A program made the position numbers and the translations under genes. This document shows, piece after piece, positions 9,941 through 43,332 of a stretch of DNA of 64,000 nucleotides (within the stretch, counting starts at the first letter, position 1; each line of letters opens with the position of its first letter). The stretch is from Negaprion brevirostris. Its lineage: Eukaryota. The stretch lies in the NCBI GenBank assembly GCA_030324005.1, contig JARDVH010000084.1, forward strand, positions 95,652,876-95,716,875. The letters are read 5' to 3'. The notes below the pieces were generated by a model. The model was not told where the DNA came from, ran no database searches, and worked only from the letters and a program-made list of their open reading frames with translations.

Positions 9941-10357
9941 TATATATTATATATATTTATATCTCAAACTTTTTCCTTTTCTTTCTCATACAATAGGCCA
10001 TTTAAACATGGCACACAAGTAGAAAAGTGCAATGAAAAATATACCACTTTTAAGTGCATCAAGATCTGGGCATTATCCACAGCCATGAGAATTGGGAGTG
10101 TTCGTGCATGAATGATGAGAGGATATAAAATAATTGTTAAAAGCTATAATCGGTTTTCATTCCATTGGTTTGCTAGTTCCATCACATCACAGGCCTGCGC
10201 TTGAGGGGGAAGAAATGGGGAGAGGGAGCAGGAAGGGGAGAGGCAGAGAGATGAAGTGAAGGAGTGGCGGGAGATGATTTACACCCGGCTTTGCTTTCAC
10301 CGCAGTCCCCCCTGCCCCCTATTCCCCCAAAATCCCGCCGCCTCCTCTCCCCTCGCG

Positions 10358-10528
10358 TCAGTGGCCACTGGCGTTACGGAATTCGCCATTCTCCGTGATC
10401 TGTAGGCGCGGCGGAGGGTGCGACGACATCATGCCATTCAGCTGGGTCTCGCTGCACCGGTCTTTCATGTGAGTCAGGGTGCTCATCAGCCGGGAGTTGG
10501 TTGCCCCCATCGTTGAGAGCTGCCTCTC
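10358..10528 (-). CDS. SYNGAP1: SYNGAP1 terminal coding exon, alpha2-type frame
   Basis: ttttgtttag|GAGAGGCAG; ERQLSTMGATNSRLMSTLTHMKDRCSETQLNGMMSSHPPPRLQITENGEFRNASGH*; ERQL and PPPRLQITENGEFRN match SynGAP alpha2. Confidence 0.95.
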   Translation of the reverse strand, partial: ERQLSTMGATNSRLMSTLTHMKDRCSETQLNGMMSSHPPPRLQITENGEFRNASGH

Positions 10529-12829
10529 CTAAACAAAACAAAAAATATATAAAAAGGGAAGAAATCCGTGTTAAAGCCACAGCATCCGTCGCCAAGGAGG
10601 GCGAACTTCTCTGTACCCTGGAGCAGCCAAGCCAAGTCCTCGAAGCGATATGGCGAGAGGAAGCCAATTTATAATGGGGGAGGGGGCGGAGTTGTGGGGC
10701 CTTAAGAAATTGGAATCTACCAATCTCAATAAGGATATCTGCACCAGCCAATTGCATAATTCAATGAAAGACAACTTTACTTTCTTTAAATCAAAAGCAA
10801 TCTGATGCTTTGAGCAGGGCCCCTCTAATTTTGCTGGAAACCAACTCGCAAAACTGTTCAATGTCAGGGTGGAAAGAATCCAGGTCACCCTTAGCAAGAC
10901 TCAGGATTTCACACATGGGTTGCATATCTGAGCCAGAATGCTGGAACAATGTTTTGAGACCTAGGAGCTGCCCAAGCTCAGCTGGTGGGGGAGACAATCA
11001 GTAGCAGGTAGAGAAGGTGAGGAAAATATGAATCTAATTTGTGCCATGTGGGGATGTGGGATGAGTTGGTAGGCTTCTATCACAAAGATAATGACAGTCA
11101 ATTCTCATTAAACAAAAAAAGGGTGGTAATTTCTTTCAAATGTAAAAGTGGTTAAAAAATAAGATACAGGTGACCTGATTGGATAGTTAGATTTCAAGTG
11201 CCTCCAATCAGAATGAAGAAGTACGCTCTCCACAGAATTGTGCTTGGATGATTCCAGGATATGAGGAACATTTCAAAGCATCGAGAATCAAATCTACCAA
11301 CAATCTACAACATCTCCGCTTTCACATCCCAGCGCAGTGTGCTCCTTTGTCGTGGCCTAGGCTTCGGGACCTTTGTTCTTAATCAATGCCCTAAATTGAC
11401 ACGGTGACAGGCAGGCCCAATTCAGTGAGCATCTAATCTTTCTCCATGCTTGCTGCTTTGAAGCCTTACACCCCCCTTCCTCCTCACATATTACATTGAT
11501 GCCATGTTAGCCACCTTGCCTAATGCGGGAGATAACTTGAAACGAATGTGTGTACAAACAGTCCCCACCGTCTACCCTCCCCCCAAATTATCGTGTAACT
11601 GGACGCATCCATAGGCATTTTATACTCCACCCTGACCAACTGATGTAGCTGACGGGTTAAAATTGATCAAGAGCCCATTGTCTCCCTTCCACCCAATAAA
11701 TGCTTTATAAACAACCTAGCCCCCATCTGCACTAACTATTAGGAGATCTACATATAGTTGAGACAACTATATGGGTTTTCCTGCAGTCTGTTTGCCTTCG
11801 GCATGAACTGCTTTCTGTTGCCTTTTTGGGTTTTGCTTCCTTCTATGTTTTGGATGGGAAAGCGGACCTACTTCAGCACCTTATATTTTGGATGGGAAAG
11901 TGGATCTACTTCAGCACCTGATATTGCAACTGACTGGCAGAGGGCAACATGTTCTGGGTTGCCATGCAGTGGTATGCATTCCTTATTGTTCTTGAAGACT
12001 ATTTGGGAAGCAGAAAGAGTCTTCAATAGCTTCTTTATGTTATCAAACTTGATTGGTGTGCTTCTGAATCTAGAGATTCTTCCACTGTATGGCAGGGAAT
12101 AGTGGTGCAATCAATGGAGAGAAATATTGGGGAGGGGGATGTGATACTGATATTTCATCTGTTCCTGTGTGCTTCCTGCCCACCGCGTCAAGTTGAAATT
12201 TATTCTCAAAGTGCCCACAAGCGCCTGTGGGATACTCCTAGATTTGGCATCTCTGGAGGCACCGTAGCTTGGACCACAAACACGTGAAGAGACACAGCAC
12301 AGAGAATGAATGGCTTCAACTTGTGACAGAATGAAAGTCATGCAAACATCACAATGGCGGGGAGAATGACACATATTGCAGGTCAAAAAAAGAAACAAAT
12401 GACAATTCTTTTTAGTTTCAGTCTCTTGTTATGTTGTATTTCCCACCTCTTAGAATCTCTGTATTGGTTTAGCTCTTCGAATGGATGTGGCTGAAGTGAA
12501 GTGAGCTGCAGATCGACATGGGTTGCCACACCAAACTTCAGTCACATGATTTCCACTTTGTGGCCAGTTTCATGGCGTCCCCTCGGAACTGAGTGGGACT
12601 ATTCAAATAGGTAATTCTCGCCTCACATCCTGGGCCAAGTCACTGAGAAAGTTCAAGGTTCAAATTCTCACTTTAAAGCTTTAATGTATTCTCATTGTTT
12701 TAACAGGGTATGTGGATTGCCCCATAAAATTAAGCATGAGGCACCCATGTGAATCTAAAGATGACACTGGGTGTCATGCTATGTGCTTATAATTCAGTCC
12801 CATATCCTGCTTTGGGGGACCTGACGAAC

Positions 12830-18388: not shown

Positions 18389-18596
18389 TCAGACCAGCTG
18401 CTGCCCCCCTCCCCCTTCCAAGCTGTACTCGAAGCGGCGAGCCTGGCGACGAACGAGGCGGGGGTCTCCGCGGAACTTGGCCTCGATCCGGCTCGAAGCA
18501 TAGTCCTTGGCGCGGTGAGGGCGAGGTGGGTGGGCAGCGGGTGGGGCTGGAAAACCATTTTGCTTTTTTTTGAAGGAATGCTCCATTGACTTCCAG
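18389..18596 (-). CDS. Candidate alternative exon / ORF in last SYNGAP1 intron (acceptor hidden in gap 18597-18673)
   Basis: Preceded by TACTAAT branch point and an AG-free pyrimidine tract of more than 80 nt; GC-rich open frame WKSMEHSFKKKQNGFPAPPAAHPPRP...GGGGQQLV*. Confidence 0.4.
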
Positions 18597-19612
18597 NNNN
18601 NNNNNNNNNNNNNNNNNNNNNNNNNNNNNNNNNNNNNNNNNNNNNNNNNNNNNNNNNNNNNNNNNNNNNNNNNAAAGAAGGCGTAAGAGAGTAAGAAAGG
18701 GGAAAAGAGGAAAGGCAGGAAGAGAAATAAAGAAATTTACATATGTATTTGCAATATTAGTACAATTTGTTGGCACAATTTCCATACCACAAAGGTATAC
18801 CTCACAAAGCACGAACACATACAGACACATGTATATATTGAATACATATGTAGATTATATAAATATATATCACAATCAATAAAGCAATAATGTTAGTTAT
18901 TAGATGCTGCATTTCCAAAATGGTTGCTCAGCAAAGTTTTCGACAGCCTGTACAGTACAGATTACAATAGCCGCCTCCCCTCACACCAGGGAACAGTGAT
19001 GACCATGACACTTGGCGAAGGATGGGGTTATCGAAACCACTTGAACCTGACCGGCTGAGGATAGGGTGCAGTGCCCATCTGATTGCCAAGCCCACCGTGC
19101 ACCTCAACAAAGACAGGATCATCTGGACAGGACATGAAAGCCGGCCGCGCACCCTATCCGGCCACCCTCCCCGTTTTGGCTGCCGGCCGCTGCGAAGTGA
19201 CCACCCCGGTGGGGCAGTGGTCAGGAAAGGCAGCCCGTAATTGCATCCTCAGCCATCGCCACCGCCACTTGTAGGTAATCCTACCGGGAGATCGGAGGCC
19301 ACGGTAGGTCACGTCTGCCCGTCTTGCGCCATTGTCGCACACCTTGGCCGTGGTAGCTCGTCTGCAGCCGCCCCATAACCGTCACCCAACTCCGCCTGTC
19401 TTGACCCCTTTTCCTGACCCGCCAAGAGAGACATTCTAGAAGGTTCTTCCTCCATCTGCGTAGCGCTGACTCCCCCAACCGCCCATCCTTTTTCTTCCCC
19501 CAGTCATTTTATCATTTCCTCCAAGAAAGATGCGATGAATTCATCCACTTGACATTGAAGGTAAGGGTGGGTAGGAGAGGGTAGGCGCCCTTACCCTGGA
19601 GAGCAGGTGGAC

Positions 19613-19833
19613 AACCCCCATCCCGCAGCCCCTCCCCCCTCGGGGCCATCTCGTGCGCCTAACTGTCCCCGCACGCGGTCAGTTTAAATCTCGCCCCGCC
19701 CCTCCCCCACTCGACTTATCAGATTCCGAGCCTGCCGCTCGGCAACCGATGACGTCAACAGCGGACGCAGTTCCGATTGATGCAAAGGCGCGGACCCGCT
19801 CCCATGGAGGGAATTCTCACGATTGGCAGGTCC
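19613..19833 (-). promoter_or_regulatory. Promoter-like cassette copy 1 (left arm of inverted repeat)
   Basis: On the minus strand: CCAAT, TGACGTCA (19750-19757), GGGGCGGGG, TTTAAA (19683-19688). Confidence 0.55.
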
Positions 19834-20347
19834 ATCGATGGGCGCATGTGCGCCCTCACGGCGCAGAATGTTCTACCGAGAGCGAGCGGGCGTCCGTTTT
19901 GGAAGGCGTCGAATGGGGGAGTGCGGTTCAAGAAGCCCAGGTAGGAGAAAATCGGCTCTGAATACCTGTCGTCCGTTGACCGCCCCCCTTTCACAGGATT
20001 CGTTACCTGCTGGGGCGGAGTTATAGCAAGTGAGAGTGGAGGGTTGGGCTGATAAATCGCGTTCGACGTCCGACCAGATATTGGACTACATTAACGTGGC
20101 GGCGTCTCTGACACCAAGTCAGGTTAAACTTGAGCTTAGGCCTGTCAACAGACGCAGCGTTTTGTTTTCTACTTGGGAGACAGGCTCTTGTGATTCTCAG
20201 TGCCTTGGAAAACCTGGGTGTGAATTATGGGCATTGGTTCCCACCAATTTTGCAATAAACCCTGTATAAATACCACGCAGGTTAATCTTTCAGGAAACAG
20301 GAGGGATGGAGTGTAAAATAGATGGTAGATCTGTTACCTAAGTTGTT

Positions 20348-20606
20348 AAAGTTTTATTTATTAGTCTGACAAGTAAGCTTACATTAACACTGCAGTGAAG
20401 TTACTGTGAAAATCCCCCCAGTTGCCACACTGCGGCGCCTGTTCGGGTACACTGAGGGGGAATTTAGGATGGCCCAGTACACCCTAACCAGCATGTCTTT
20501 CGGACTGTGGGAGGAAACCCACACAGACATAGGGAGAACGTGCAGACTCCGCACAGTGATGGAAACTGGGAATTGAACCCAGGTCCCTGACAGCCTGAGG
20601 CAGCAG
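20348..20606 (-). mobile_element. HE1/V-SINE-like element, 5'-truncated
   Basis: V-domain plus B-box gggttcaattccc; same tail subfamily as 22190-22372 and 49725-50016. Confidence 0.85.
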
Positions 20607-20803
20607 GGCCAGCCAATCGGGAGGGAGCGGGTCCGTACCTTTGGACCAATCGGATCGCAGTCCGCTGGTGACGTCATCGGATGCCGAGCGGCAGGCTCGG
20701 AATCTGATAGGTCGAGAGTTGGAGAGGGGTGGGGCGGGATTTAAACTGACCGCGTGTTAGGCGGGCGAGGCGGCCCCAGGGGAGGGGCTGTGGGATGGGG
20801 TTT
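20606..20803 (+). promoter_or_regulatory. Promoter-like cassette copy 2 (right arm of inverted repeat)
   Basis: Reverse complement of 19613-19833 with indels; CCAAT x2, TGACGTCA (20669-20676), GGGGCGGG, TTTAAA (20740-20745). Confidence 0.55.
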
Positions 20804-30281: not shown

Positions 30282-31823
30282 NNNNNNNNNNNNNNNNNNN
30301 NNNNNNNNNNNNNNNNNNNNNNNNNNNNNNNNNNNNNNNNNNNNNNNNNNNNNNNNNNNNNNNNNNNNNNNNNNNNNNNNNCTTTCTAAACATCTGAAGG
30401 CTTGGCTCTTCACAGATTGAGCCTGTGATATTTTCGGGTGGAGCAAGTTCGGGATGGAATTTCCCTCTTTCCTCACCTTCTCCTATCCACACTACTCTCC
30501 TCCCCACCCTCTTCCTATCCAGACTTGTACATCTCCCCATCCCTGCCTATTTTCCTATTCCAATTTACTCACTATTATCAAATTTGTGTCTGTTCTCAGT
30601 AGGTGCTCTTGCCCTAACCTTGTCTTTTATTGCCCTTCTGGAGCTATTTATCAGCATGTGAAGTAATCTTAATCCTACTTTCAAATAGTTTAAACTGCTC
30701 AATATATTCAAGTAGTTGGGCGCCGTTGCTTGTGATTTGGCCGTACTCTGTTCAGTTGGTCATTTATAATACCAAGTGGAAAGGGCTATCACCCAGTGCT
30801 GAGTCCGTGGACTTGTTTGAATTCTCTTCTCCTTTGTACATGCAAGTTACTTCTCTTTGTTCCTGCACAACTAGACTGCCATTGGATAATCTGCTATTGA
30901 CAACTATCAGACATTGCCAGAGCACTGGAATCCATTTGGGGTACATTGCATTTGAAATCAGATCTTAGCAGAGAGAAATGAGCATATGGTGGCGGGTCTG
31001 GTTTGGTACCTAGTGGCAACTGTACCAACGTTTGGCCTACTCCAAAAAGGTCATTAGTGTAAACAGTGCGACAAACCTGAGTGTATGTTGGCAAAATCGC
31101 TGCACACCTTGTAGTAGTGAGCAGCCTCATGACCACTTAAAGAGTACATGCCCGCCCTTCATTCCCTTGTGCCAGCTAATACCCCACCCAACCAATTCGC
31201 TTCAGAGGTGGGCAATCGCATAGAGGAATTAAACAAAAGAAAAACATGCATGTGAGGTTACCATTGGCCTCCTGGTTTTCCCACTTGTACATAACCAGGG
31301 CAGAACCCTGCCTAATTACTGTCAACTATTTCCCAGGTCAAACCTCATCTTCACAATCTCACAAGCTGCCTTTCCAAAACTGAGGACATTTAAGTGGGGG
31401 CCATCCCACTTCTGTCCTGGTACCTCCCCACTGCACAAAAACATGCATGCCACTGAAAGTAGTTAAAATTTTTGCAATGGTGCCAGCCAATTTTCCCTGA
31501 ACATCGCCAGCGCAGTTGCCCCCAGCCCATTTTAAGGGGTGGGTCGAATGCTGATTCTGAAAAAAAAACATGGTATCTTAAGGAGGGTTGGATAGTAGTA
31601 GGAATGTCCCTGCTGAGTATTTATTAGAAACTGATAGCTGTCCAATTATGACACGCATCATGGCAGGAGCCCCTTTGCTTATAGTTGGGGAGGCGGGGAG
31701 AAAATCTGCAGCAGTTTGTTCAGATGAGGTTTGACCGGAGCCGTCCTATCCCGACAAGACTGGTTTGCAGACGCTGCTCCCTCAGTGTCATTTGTTGATC
31801 TTTGAGGTGATGATTTTCTGTAC

Positions 31824-31911
31824 CTGAACGTCGATTATCCGCTGCTTGGCATCAATGGCCTCCTGCATGTTGGCGTGGTCTTTCCTCAACTCGTCTTCCA
31901 CCACCATTAAC
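31824..31911 (-). CDS. SYNGAP1: SYNGAP1 exon 18 equivalent
   Basis: gcccacag|...|gtacag, 88 bp; (R)LMVVEDELRKDHANMQEAIDAKQRIIDVQ; not present in the ORF track. Confidence 0.93.
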
Positions 31912-35350: not shown

Positions 35351-37070
35351 TTAATACTCAGGTTGAGATGTGGCATGGGTTAGACAAAGAGTAATTTACG
35401 CTCTACACTGTCCCATCAAGCACCCAGGTACAGTGCAGGTTGGATACAAGCTCCCTCTGCACGATTTATGATGTTGAGACAGATTTAGGAGAAAATGTTT
35501 GTGCCAACAATGTGGTTACATTAGAAATAAAACACAAATCCAATGTCAGAACCCATCTTGAGAATTAAAAGAAGCTTCCTGGTGGAAGATGTTGCATTCC
35601 CAGAAAATCCAGGCTGTGGTTCCAGGTTTACTCTGTAAGTCTAGAGTTAGCATAAAGTATGCGCACACTGTTTTGTGCATCATATCATTTGACCTCGCAT
35701 ACTGACTTCATCCAGACTACCGTGGAAGTGAATGTTGTGTTGCAAGCAGCCTTCAGTATGATGAGAGCGTGGAACTTGCCATCACAGGGAGTGGTAGAGA
35801 TGAATAGTGTAGATCTGTTTAAGGGAAAGTTAGATGAGATGATGAAACTTGAGGGCTATGTTGATAGGGTTGGACGAGGAAGATCTGGAGAAAATTTGAG
35901 TGAAGCATAAATGCTTGAATTGGGCTGAATGGCTGTTTCTGTCCTGTATATTCAATGTAATGTCCCTTAGGAGGGTGTTGGGCAAAGATGGGATTGAACT
36001 CTGGCAGTGCCTTCTTTGGAGATTTTGGTAAGGATACACCATACTAACTGACTTACATCCTTGGGGTGTGGGTGTCACTGGCCATGCCAGTGTCCTAGAT
36101 GACCTGAAGAAGGTGATGGTGTATCTCTTTATGTATCATTGCAGTTCATGTCGTACAGTCAAAGAGTTTTACATCACAGAAAGAGGTCCTTTGGCCCATC
36201 GTGTCTCTGCCAGCCATCAAGCACCTATCTATTCTAATCACATTTTCTAGTACTTGGTGCTTAGTCTTCTTTGCTTTGGCATCTTTGATGCTCATCTAAA
36301 TGCTTCTTAAATTCTGCTTTCACGTCTGCCATCTTTTCAGATTCCCACTACACTCTGGGTGAAAAAGTTTTTCCTTAACTTCCTTCTAAATCTCCTGCCC
36401 CGACCTTAAATCTATACTCCCTAGTTATTGAACTCTGTACTGAGGGAAAAGTTTCTTTCTATTTACCCGATCTAAGTCCCTCATTATTTGGAAGCAAAGG
36501 TGCTCCAGGAAGGAAGTTTGTTTTTTGTATGTGGTCAGTCCATTGCAGTGTCTTGCTAGGCCACTTTGGAAGCAGTTAGATTTCAAACATACTAGAGTCA
36601 CATATGGTTCAGATTGGGTAAGAACTGTAAGTTAATCAATATTAGTGAACCAGTTAAACTTTTTAAACCAACTTTTTATTTGTAGATTGCTTTAAACTAA
36701 TTTCACAGTAGAGGAAATTTGAACATATGTTCTCTGGATTATACGTCCAGCAATAAAACTATTACACACCATATCTGGCCTGTATAGAGTGCTGTGGGAT
36801 CTGCACCCATCCAGACAACTGGGGGGTATTCCATTACACTGTAGGCAACGAGTAGGCTTTGGGAAATCAGACGGTGAGTCACTCATCACACTGACCTGCT
36901 CTATTAGCCACAGCATTTATGTAGCTACTTCAGTTGAGTTGTTGATCACTGCTAATATTCCTTGGATGTTGGTCAGTGAGGGGATTTGGCAGTATTAATG
37001 CCATTAAGTGATAATGGCTTTGAAGGTTTCCTAGCCAGAAAATTGACTGAGTTGGCTGTTTGCTGTTTAC

Positions 37071-37282
37071 CTGTTGATAATGCCTTTGATCTGGTTGTCC
37101 TTCTCCTCCTGCTGCCGGCGCAGACGGGTCTCACTTTCATCCAGGCGTGTCTGGTATTCTCGAAGGATCTTCCCTGTTTGTTCCTCCTGTGACATCAGCC
37201 GCCGCTNNNNNNNNNNGCGGTTAGACATCTGCAGCCGTTCCTTCAGGGAAAGAATCTCCTCCTCATACTGGGTCTGTTGCCC
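37071..37282 (-). CDS. SYNGAP1: SYNGAP1 exon 17 equivalent, coiled coil (contains 10-N gap; 5' boundary ambiguous)
   Basis: [17 protein letters not shown][gap][44 protein letters not shown](R); donor gtaaac. Confidence 0.93.
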
Positions 37283-42284: not shown

Positions 42285-43140
42285 CTGCTTGGTGATGCCT
42301 GATTTTGCAGCCGGAGCATCTGTTTTGGCCATGATTGACTGCTGGCGCACCTTGGGACCGTGTGTTGGCTCGGCAGGCGACTGCAACAAGTTGGCACTAG
42401 GAGGTCGAGGTCGCTGGGCCGCGCTGACCGTCAGCTGCTGTGTTTTTCCTCGGACAAGAGGTGGAGGAGCAGGCGGCGGCTGGTCTATCCTCCTCTGGGG
42501 ACCGATGTTGGCCGGGGGTGCTGACAGCATGTGTTGAAGGTTGTCGGTCAGTGACAGCTGCCTGCGGCTAAACTCGCTGTTCTGCCGGGCGAACTCATCA
42601 CTGTAGCTATGACTATGGAAGATCTGCTTGTTGGCAGAAAGATCCTCACTCTTGCTGTAACCATGGTAACCCAAGAGGCCAGCACCAGGCTCGGCGGGAG
42701 TCCGTAATGAGGCAGGCCCATCTGAGGTCATGTTGAATAAGGGGTTCTGAAAGGACAAGGGGACTCGCAACTGCCCATGCAATCCATCCGTGGTGATACC
42801 CATTTGTCCTAACCGCAGACCTCCTGACACGCTTGACCCACTCCCCTGTGACAGTCGGCTAGGCCTGAGGCCTACTGTAGTTCCAATCGAGGCCTGACTG
42901 CTATTTAGCATGTCCCCAACAGTCTGGAGGTTACTTATGCTGTTCATACTCCGGCTGTCCTGCAGGTCCATCATGGAGATACTCTTGTTCGTGGTCATCA
43001 TTTTGGGGTCAGGTTCTGTGATATCAGAGCTGCTTGTGCAATATGCCGGGGAGGAACGTGCAAGTGGAGGCCTTGTCACATAAAAGACATCCTTTCCCTT
43101 TTCCTTGGTCGGAGAAGGTAGCCTGGTCATATCGATTGAG
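42285..43140 (-). CDS. SYNGAP1: SYNGAP1 exon 15 equivalent (large disordered-region exon)
   Basis: ttacag|...|gtaggc, 856 bp; [14 protein letters not shown]...[21 protein letters not shown]...LSFQNPLF...RRQLSL...RQQS...GITKQ; motifs are SYNGAP1-specific rather than DAB2IP/RASAL2. Confidence 0.97.
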
Positions 43141-43332
43141 CTGTAATTGAAGGAGAATGGTAGCACTAAATTATAAAGGAATAGGAAAACTTGTGTTCTA
43201 TTTTTCCTGCATTTCTCTGTCTAAGGAACTCAAACCTGTGGAAAAATCAAGTACTCCTCTGTCATCTTACACTCCATCCTTACCCAATGTCCTGTTGCTT
43301 ACATCCTAACATACAAGAAGAGCTGGCCTCTT

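Follow-up and report, generated by a model that had tools for sequence, protein, structure and literature searches.

The window, that is, the whole stretch of 64,000 nucleotides of Negaprion brevirostris DNA analysed here, carries on its minus strand a SYNGAP1 gene whose last coding exon can be read in two frames. The features of this exon, and the exon by which the gene is anchored to its orthologues, are as follows:

10358..10528, minus strand: last coding exon of SYNGAP1; frame 0 is the alpha2 tail (56 aa and a stop), the ancestral frame
10486..10527, minus strand: +1 frame at the position of mammalian alpha1, RGSSQRWGQPTPG and a stop, without class I PDZ ligand
10483..10488, minus strand: two TGA codons of the +1 frame, from alpha2 codons Leu14-Met15-Ser16; TGA TGA also occurs in both paralogues
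10490, minus strand: third base of alpha2 Arg13, silent in alpha2, which decides the last +1 residue
10529..10565, minus strand: AG acceptor and pyrimidine tract of the last exon, as read from the sequence
42285..43142, minus strand: large SYNGAP1 exon, the orthology anchor, 98.6% identical to Chiloscyllium SynGAP P0196

The gene in the window is orthologous to SYNGAP1, and separate DAB2IP-like and RASAL2-like loci are present in the genome. In a tree of 22 hand-chosen rows covering the last 420 residues, in which the window protein was not itself a row, annotated chondrichthyan and bony SYNGAP1 formed one clade (100/100), and lamprey proteins were not placed with SYNGAP1, an open fork with long branches. 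In a profile search (93 matches), proteins of lamprey, hagfish, amphioxus, hemichordate, crinoid, and scorpion were seen to continue in the alpha2 frame past the corresponding junction; the junction and the motif are common to DAB2IP and RASAL2 as well. This occurrence in both cyclostomes and invertebrates marks alpha2 as the ancestral frame, and these tails show it, at the level of sequence, to be the old one, common to invertebrates. The whole alpha1 peptide could be encoded in none of the three cyclostome and four invertebrate tails compared.

On the minus strand, the intron end tttag is followed from 10528 by the exon, GAGAGGCAG, whose alpha2 stop codon lies in frame 0 at 10358-10360. Entered at 10527, the +1 frame is open for 13 codons and gives RGSSQRWGQPTPG, closed by TGA at 10486-10488. 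The mammalian alpha1 tail (P0136), RGSFPPWVQQTRV, likewise has 13 residues, and 6/13 are identical to the shark +1 peptide. As to a class I ligand, the shark peptide has Thr at position -2, and Gly at position 0 in place of a hydrophobic residue; of the residues F4, P6, and W7, by which alpha1 contacts the alphaC helix of PDZ3 (PMC10441386), it has W7 only. The 1-nt shift into a 13-residue frame and the missing ligand had both been described in the initial annotation, and both were confirmed in the sequence. The comparison was made with assembled contigs, not raw reads: no difference was seen over 10250-10700 in a Logan contig of run X15, from which this DNA may itself derive, or over 10335/10352-10522, ligand codons included, in contigs of X2 and X7, from two other organisms, and X1 has no listed exon difference, one of its three differing letters being unplaced. 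Although the scaffold has numerous gaps, it is extremely improbable that an assembly error conceals a T-x-V ending, as every base of the ligand codons is matched by the contigs of X15, X2, and X7, and a single copy of the exon was found in the genome. It had also been claimed that a change of GGC to GTC would be enough to supply the ligand, and this stands in part. One alpha2-silent change at 10490, which codes for Gly in the window, Asp in bamboo shark, and Val in bony vertebrates, gives T-P-V, the ending used by paddlefish, smelt, and carp, but the mammalian anchor is not rebuilt: F4, P5, P6, and V8 are missing besides the terminal Val, and seven alpha2-silent changes separate the shark +1 peptide from the mammalian one.

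Why the +1 frame has 13 codons

A search of the same genome with the alpha2 tail led to three loci: SYNGAP1, a DAB2IP-like exon, and a RASAL2-like exon, the latter two presumably DAB2IP and RASAL2, by their likeness to labelled proteins. The +1 frames of these paralogous last exons, RNALSHWTQLMPD and KNESSLWTLPTLG, each followed by two stops, are both 13 aa long, and the RASAL2 frame ends in T-L-G and a stop, so Thr(-2) recurs there. The landmarks of the +1 frame arise from the overlapping alpha2 codons: the stop from Leu14-Met15, Thr(-2) from Asn11 coded AAC, and Trp7 from Met7-Gly8. When the alpha2 protein was held fixed and synonymous codons were drawn at random (200,000 draws), the probability of a 13-aa frame was 0.48-0.52, that of 13 aa with Thr at -2 was 0.26-0.36, and with a class I end 0.043; at least six identities to mammalian alpha1 were reached in about 0.32 of the simulated 13-aa cases (a ratio taken by hand). 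For all three paralogues to have 13 aa, the joint chance, as a product of simulation values, is about 0.07, a slight hint of a maintained frame. The acceptor context shared with mammals consists largely of the codons for E-R-Q, and bamboo shark has GAA in it, as deduced from two frames.

It had been proposed that equal length and Thr(-2) identify a retained alpha1 frame, a proposal that the data do not bear out, since the alpha2 codons N (AAC) and L-M account for both. Equal length, considered as a sign of a cryptic alpha1, was rejected because the paralogues and about half of the simulated exons give 13 residues too, and Thr(-2), considered as the kept half of a ligand, is present in RASAL2 and replaced by Ile in bamboo shark. 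The equal-length 13-codon frame is ordinary, no more than chance.

The +1 frame in cartilaginous fishes and bony vertebrates

The RefSeq model P0184 of the bamboo shark Chiloscyllium plagiosum ends in KGIINR followed by KGSSRRWGPPIPD, which is the +1 frame of the last exon, with Ile at -2 and a stop after the last residue. The window differs from bamboo shark at 5/13 residues in +1 and at 0/13 in alpha2, the bamboo shark frames coming from two species (+1 from C. plagiosum, alpha2 from C. punctatum). In the chimaera Callorhinchus, alpha2 Met-Asn forces TGA at +1 codon 7, so the frame stops after six residues; in the skate Amblyraja, alpha2 Ile4 rules out Ser3, and T-x-V is still possible. Shark +1 peptides are known in full for two species only. 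None of the 40 chondrichthyan SynGAP entries among the matches listed ends in S/T-x-V/I/L (120 of 1345 matches were listed, with 15 of the 116 proteins in the main cluster of sharks and rays), in agreement with the initial annotation, by which this SynGAP would lack the canonical PSD-95 anchor. The ligand thus appears to be absent across the cartilaginous-fish class, as judged from these entries.

In bony vertebrates, annotated +1 tails read SSFPPWVLQTPV in paddlefish (Polyodon), KSSFPPWVHQTPV in smelt (Osmerus), KSSFPPWIQQTPV in carp (Carassius), and RGSFPPWVQQTRV in beaver (Castor) and guinea pig (Cavia). When the exon was reconstructed from proteins annotated in its frames 0 and +2, the result was RGSFPPWVQQTRV and a stop in two caecilians, and the same in zebra finch with one Q/P ambiguity; three of the four pairs were solved in this way, and the fourth, which mixed two bird species, had no solution and was dropped. 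The pattern S-F-P-P-W-V/I-x-x-T-x-V with its stop is kept from paddlefish through to mammals, amid an alpha2 that varies. Twenty alpha2 tails were hand-picked across bony lineages, redundant mammal and bird rows being left out; all 20, and 28/28 distinct replacements among them, are compatible with the alpha1 core, as against 36/72 single-base neighbours in the control (Fisher p = 3e-7, a value that overstates the support, as it comes from related rows and from a core derived from bony peptides themselves). For zebrafish, an alpha1-like isoform of syngap1b was reported in which 10/11 terminal residues equal the human ones, and syngap1a is described as having none (PMC11266194). Conservation of the alternative-frame peptide across species is therefore found in bony vertebrates and not in cartilaginous fishes: the compared peptides show the +1 reading drifting in the latter and fixed in the former. 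This amounts, as far as aligned tails can tell, to a clear reversal of constraint between the frames, with bony vertebrates holding +1 and cartilaginous fishes holding alpha2.

A recent preprint placed the dual coding region of SYNGAP1, RASAL2, and DAB2IP before the duplications of these genes and counted SYNGAP1 among those whose frames have been kept throughout jawed vertebrates (Tress et al., 2026; bioRxiv 10.64898/2026.05.28.727796). If the last exon is meant, then preservation in sharks looks passive, and the chimaera breaks the frame. A literature search, thin on subscription papers, returned no report of ligand absence in cartilaginous fishes and none of overprinting; the class-wide absence and the reversal of constraint are apparently real and new to the literature.

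Splice routes and other terminal exons

Three further features of the window bear on how the end of the protein is made:

31824..31911, minus strand: penultimate exon, 88 nt (3n+1), with a phase-0 donor at 31824; its skipping puts the last exon in +1
37070..37282, minus strand: coiled-coil exon with a phase-2 donor at 37070 and a 10-nt N gap inside
18389..18589, minus strand: alternative terminal exon of 66 aa, ending in GGGGQQLV and a stop, conserved in sharks and stingray

In mammals, alpha1 and alpha2 are two frames of the last exon, and alpha1 accounts for about 35% of human junction reads (PMC9064290, PMC7314543). We infer that a junction one base shorter requires a non-canonical splice site. 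The 88-nt penultimate exon, which is found in both paralogues as well, follows a phase-2 donor, and plain skipping therefore enters +1, as is implied by the annotated skip-type ending of C. plagiosum P0184. By such skipping, the solved coiled coil (structure 5JXC, which spans 1170-1258 of P0136) would lose roughly 12 residues at its end. The X2 and X7 contigs continue 1241 and 3111 letters upstream of 10522, the junction letters not being displayed. In the annotated proteins of paddlefish, smelt, and carp, the +1 frame is entered after an extra cassette segment, and in the window, where N gaps are present, tblastn gave no convincing match for this fish cassette, the ray tail LHPDYL, or the TYGAFR tail. 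Ray-finned fishes enter +1 via a cassette exon and mammals via the junction one base shorter, and canonical skipping of the 88-nt exon may have exposed +1 to translation before the ligand existed.

The junction itself appears, from annotated models, to be variable in several registers among bony vertebrates: P0012, P0016, P0018, P0094, and P0124 have an extra Val or the +2 frame there, as do many bony-vertebrate models, and Astyanax syngap1b P0164 and P0166 have other class I ends (HSAV, TTAV) after the cassette segment. If the 31824 donor is read through, the following sequence (31788-31823, minus strand) gives VQKIITSKINK and a stop, 8/11 identical to chimaera P0193 (VQNIITSKISQ), where bony vertebrates from bichir to mammals read VEIT; the conservation of this intron start may reflect a splicing element, or the read-through may be a genuine short isoform.

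The exon ending in QQLV matches four annotated elasmobranch isoforms at 52-63 of 67 positions. Five elasmobranchs agree in all of its last eight residues and vary in the remainder; Val stands at 0 and Gln at -2, so the end is not class I. Among the matches listed, 6/40 chondrichthyan entries end in GGGGQQLV. The exon seems elasmobranch-specific, having no counterpart among the bony-vertebrate tails compared, and its upstream intron lies partly inside an N gap (18597-18673). Homology to the fish cassette was considered and rejected (hhalign probability 0.66%, 6 columns). A two-phase scan of 117 acceptor-like sites located below the 31824 donor, within the limits set by N gaps, gave nine class I ends, about eight being expected by chance (a hand estimate), and none corresponds to an annotated isoform.

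Outside the window, about 215-226 kb downstream of the last SYNGAP1 exon and on the same strand, lie exons of a gene with coiled-coil and B30.2 (PRY/SPRY) domains (L012 and L013; G000:C84:95448500-95448740 and 95437350-95437910). They are 90-97% identical to a tail fused in frame to SynGAP in RefSeq models: the fusion, at the 31824-type donor, is seen in Mobula, Chiloscyllium, and Stegostoma and in 17/40 entries among the matches listed, and in other sharks the tail is annotated as a separate A33-like gene. This SynGAP-B30.2 read-through may be a model artefact; if true, its conservation in both sharks and rays would deserve attention. Many B30.2 exons surround SYNGAP1, a setting that we take to be in line with an MHC-like region, and a RASAL2-like gene lies on the same scaffold (G000:C84) about 22.7 Mb away. 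Within the last SYNGAP1 intron, a GC-rich island with promoter-like CCAAT and GC boxes (19300-20750, minus strand) is possibly an internal or antisense promoter.

Gain or loss of the PSD-95 ligand

The reading we prefer, with a probability of about 0.55, is that the 13-codon frame passively mirrors alpha2 and has no class I ligand, and that the ligand was likely overprinted after the split of sharks and bony vertebrates. It is proposed that this PSD-95 ligand would have been written on the bony-vertebrate stem by third-codon changes silent in alpha2. The direction of change leans toward gain. Paralogues, chimaera, and elasmobranchs are all without the ligand, which was counted for gain together with the cyclostome and invertebrate tails that cannot encode the whole peptide, and one gain is more parsimonious because the alternative needs a gain and a loss. 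On the other side, it was counted against gain that the whole of mammalian alpha1 is within reach of shark alpha2 through silent changes alone. Codons 2-8 of alpha2, which lie under the F-P-P-W-V core, are 0/7 identical to both paralogues, compared with 10/18 for codons 9-26, as if codons 2-8 had been remodelled before sharks diverged, in keeping with what an earlier gain predicts; however, chimaera keeps 2/7 of these codons, which weakens the argument. Third bases cannot give direction because four-fold sites are saturated: 1/8 and 0/8 match the bony bases, and a downstream control of shark against caecilian gives 2/9, so the comparison (1/8 vs 2/9, Fisher p = 1) was discarded as having no power.

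Of the two histories left side by side in the initial annotation, an ancestral state and a lineage-specific loss, the first is thus favored and the second is possible at clearly longer odds. Under loss, alpha1 would have arisen on the SYNGAP1 stem before the jawed-vertebrate split and disappeared in cartilaginous fishes, the shark frame being a decayed remnant and alpha2 frozen in an alpha1-compatible form. This would account for codons 2-8 unlike both paralogues (0/7 against 10/18) and for the SYNGAP1-stem residues Q3, L4, S5, and G8, which are those required for alpha1 S3, F4, and V8, and zebrafish syngap1a offers a precedent, though there the duplicate keeps alpha1 (PMC11266194). Yet loss needs an extra event, the disappearance from a single-copy gene of a motif that is the same in every bony lineage compared; any ligand overprinted later is compatible with its contemporary alpha2 by construction; and the four-fold sites, though saturated, bear no trace of it (1/8, 0/8).

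It is improbable that the +1 frame encodes an expressed and maintained isoform, beta-like and truncating the coiled coil via skipping, kept in three paralogues since before their duplication. P0184 is annotated with such an ending, the 88-nt exon and the 13-aa frame occur in all three paralogues, and the family claim of Tress et al. (10.64898/2026.05.28.727796) agrees, but this is one annotation in 40 entries among the matches listed, the +1 peptide drifts, the chimaera frame is closed after six residues, and the preprint, whose main text leaves the exon unnamed, itself cautions that overlapped frames may persist passively. Compatible with both gain and loss, and unlikely in its own right, is a PDZ-type anchor of shark SynGAP supplied by the exon ending in QQLV, or by the B30.2 read-through with its L-R-L end, for an atypical PDZ partner. 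The invariance of the last eight residues in five elasmobranchs, the terminal Val, and the 6/40 entries among the matches listed speak for it; Gln at -2 violates the x-S/T-x-hydrophobic consensus for PSD-95 (PMC10441386), and class I ends in the 117-site scan occur at about the chance level, none of them annotated.

If gain by overprinting is the correct reading, then it can be joined with the other observations into a wider picture, which we hold tentatively and at somewhat less than even odds: the SynGAP-PSD-95 anchor would be a bony-vertebrate invention made in the wobble positions of a pre-vertebrate exon, chondrichthyans would be pre-ligand, the splice routes into the frame would differ, and sharks may use the Val-terminated exon. 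The genome has four DLG-type loci, one of which (L004) we take to be the PSD-95 orthologue. The shark +1 peptide is predicted not to bind PSD-95 because the terminal Val, F4, and P6 are missing. Mammalian isoforms without the ligand show about 25% less synaptic localization and form no condensates with PSD-95 in cells, and only alpha1 fully supports LTP and live-cell PSD-95 condensates (PMC7314543). As the loss of localization is only about 25%, shark SynGAP would remain partly synaptic, presumably reaching the synapse like mammalian alpha2 or gamma, via the coiled coil and without PDZ3 binding. If true, a vertebrate class without the ligand dates a key synaptic interaction and provides a natural comparison for its contribution, and the bony-vertebrate invention would be the very anchor central to mammalian phase separation and LTP. 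In addition, overprinting as an origin of short binding motifs can be tested cleanly on this exon, which also cautions that a frame preserved in sharks can be passive, so that isoform function need not be preserved.

Among known systems, the ancient dual coding regions of Tress et al. (10.64898/2026.05.28.727796) are described in a main text that names neither this exon nor a PDZ ligand. The last exons of DAB2IP and RASAL2 differ in alpha2 codons 2-8 (0/7 identical) and cannot encode the whole alpha1 core, but they share with SYNGAP1 the junction, the 88-nt penultimate exon, the 13-aa +1 frame, Trp7, and TGA TGA. Isoform X5 of zebrafish syngap1b (PMC11266194) and the QTPV tails of paddlefish, smelt, and carp differ from the shark frame in having the terminal Val and the SFPPW core and use the same +1 frame and stop, with T-P at -2/-1. 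The closest comparison is the mammalian alpha1/alpha2 exon (PMC7314543, PMC9064290). Its +1 frame differs from that of the shark, which drifts and is without the terminal Val, F4, P5, P6, and V8, and its alpha2 is without the ancestral RLMSxLxxxKxR segment that shark alpha2 retains; still, the two exons are orthologous and have in common the acceptor position, an intact alpha2, and a 13-codon +1 frame with Trp7 and Thr11.
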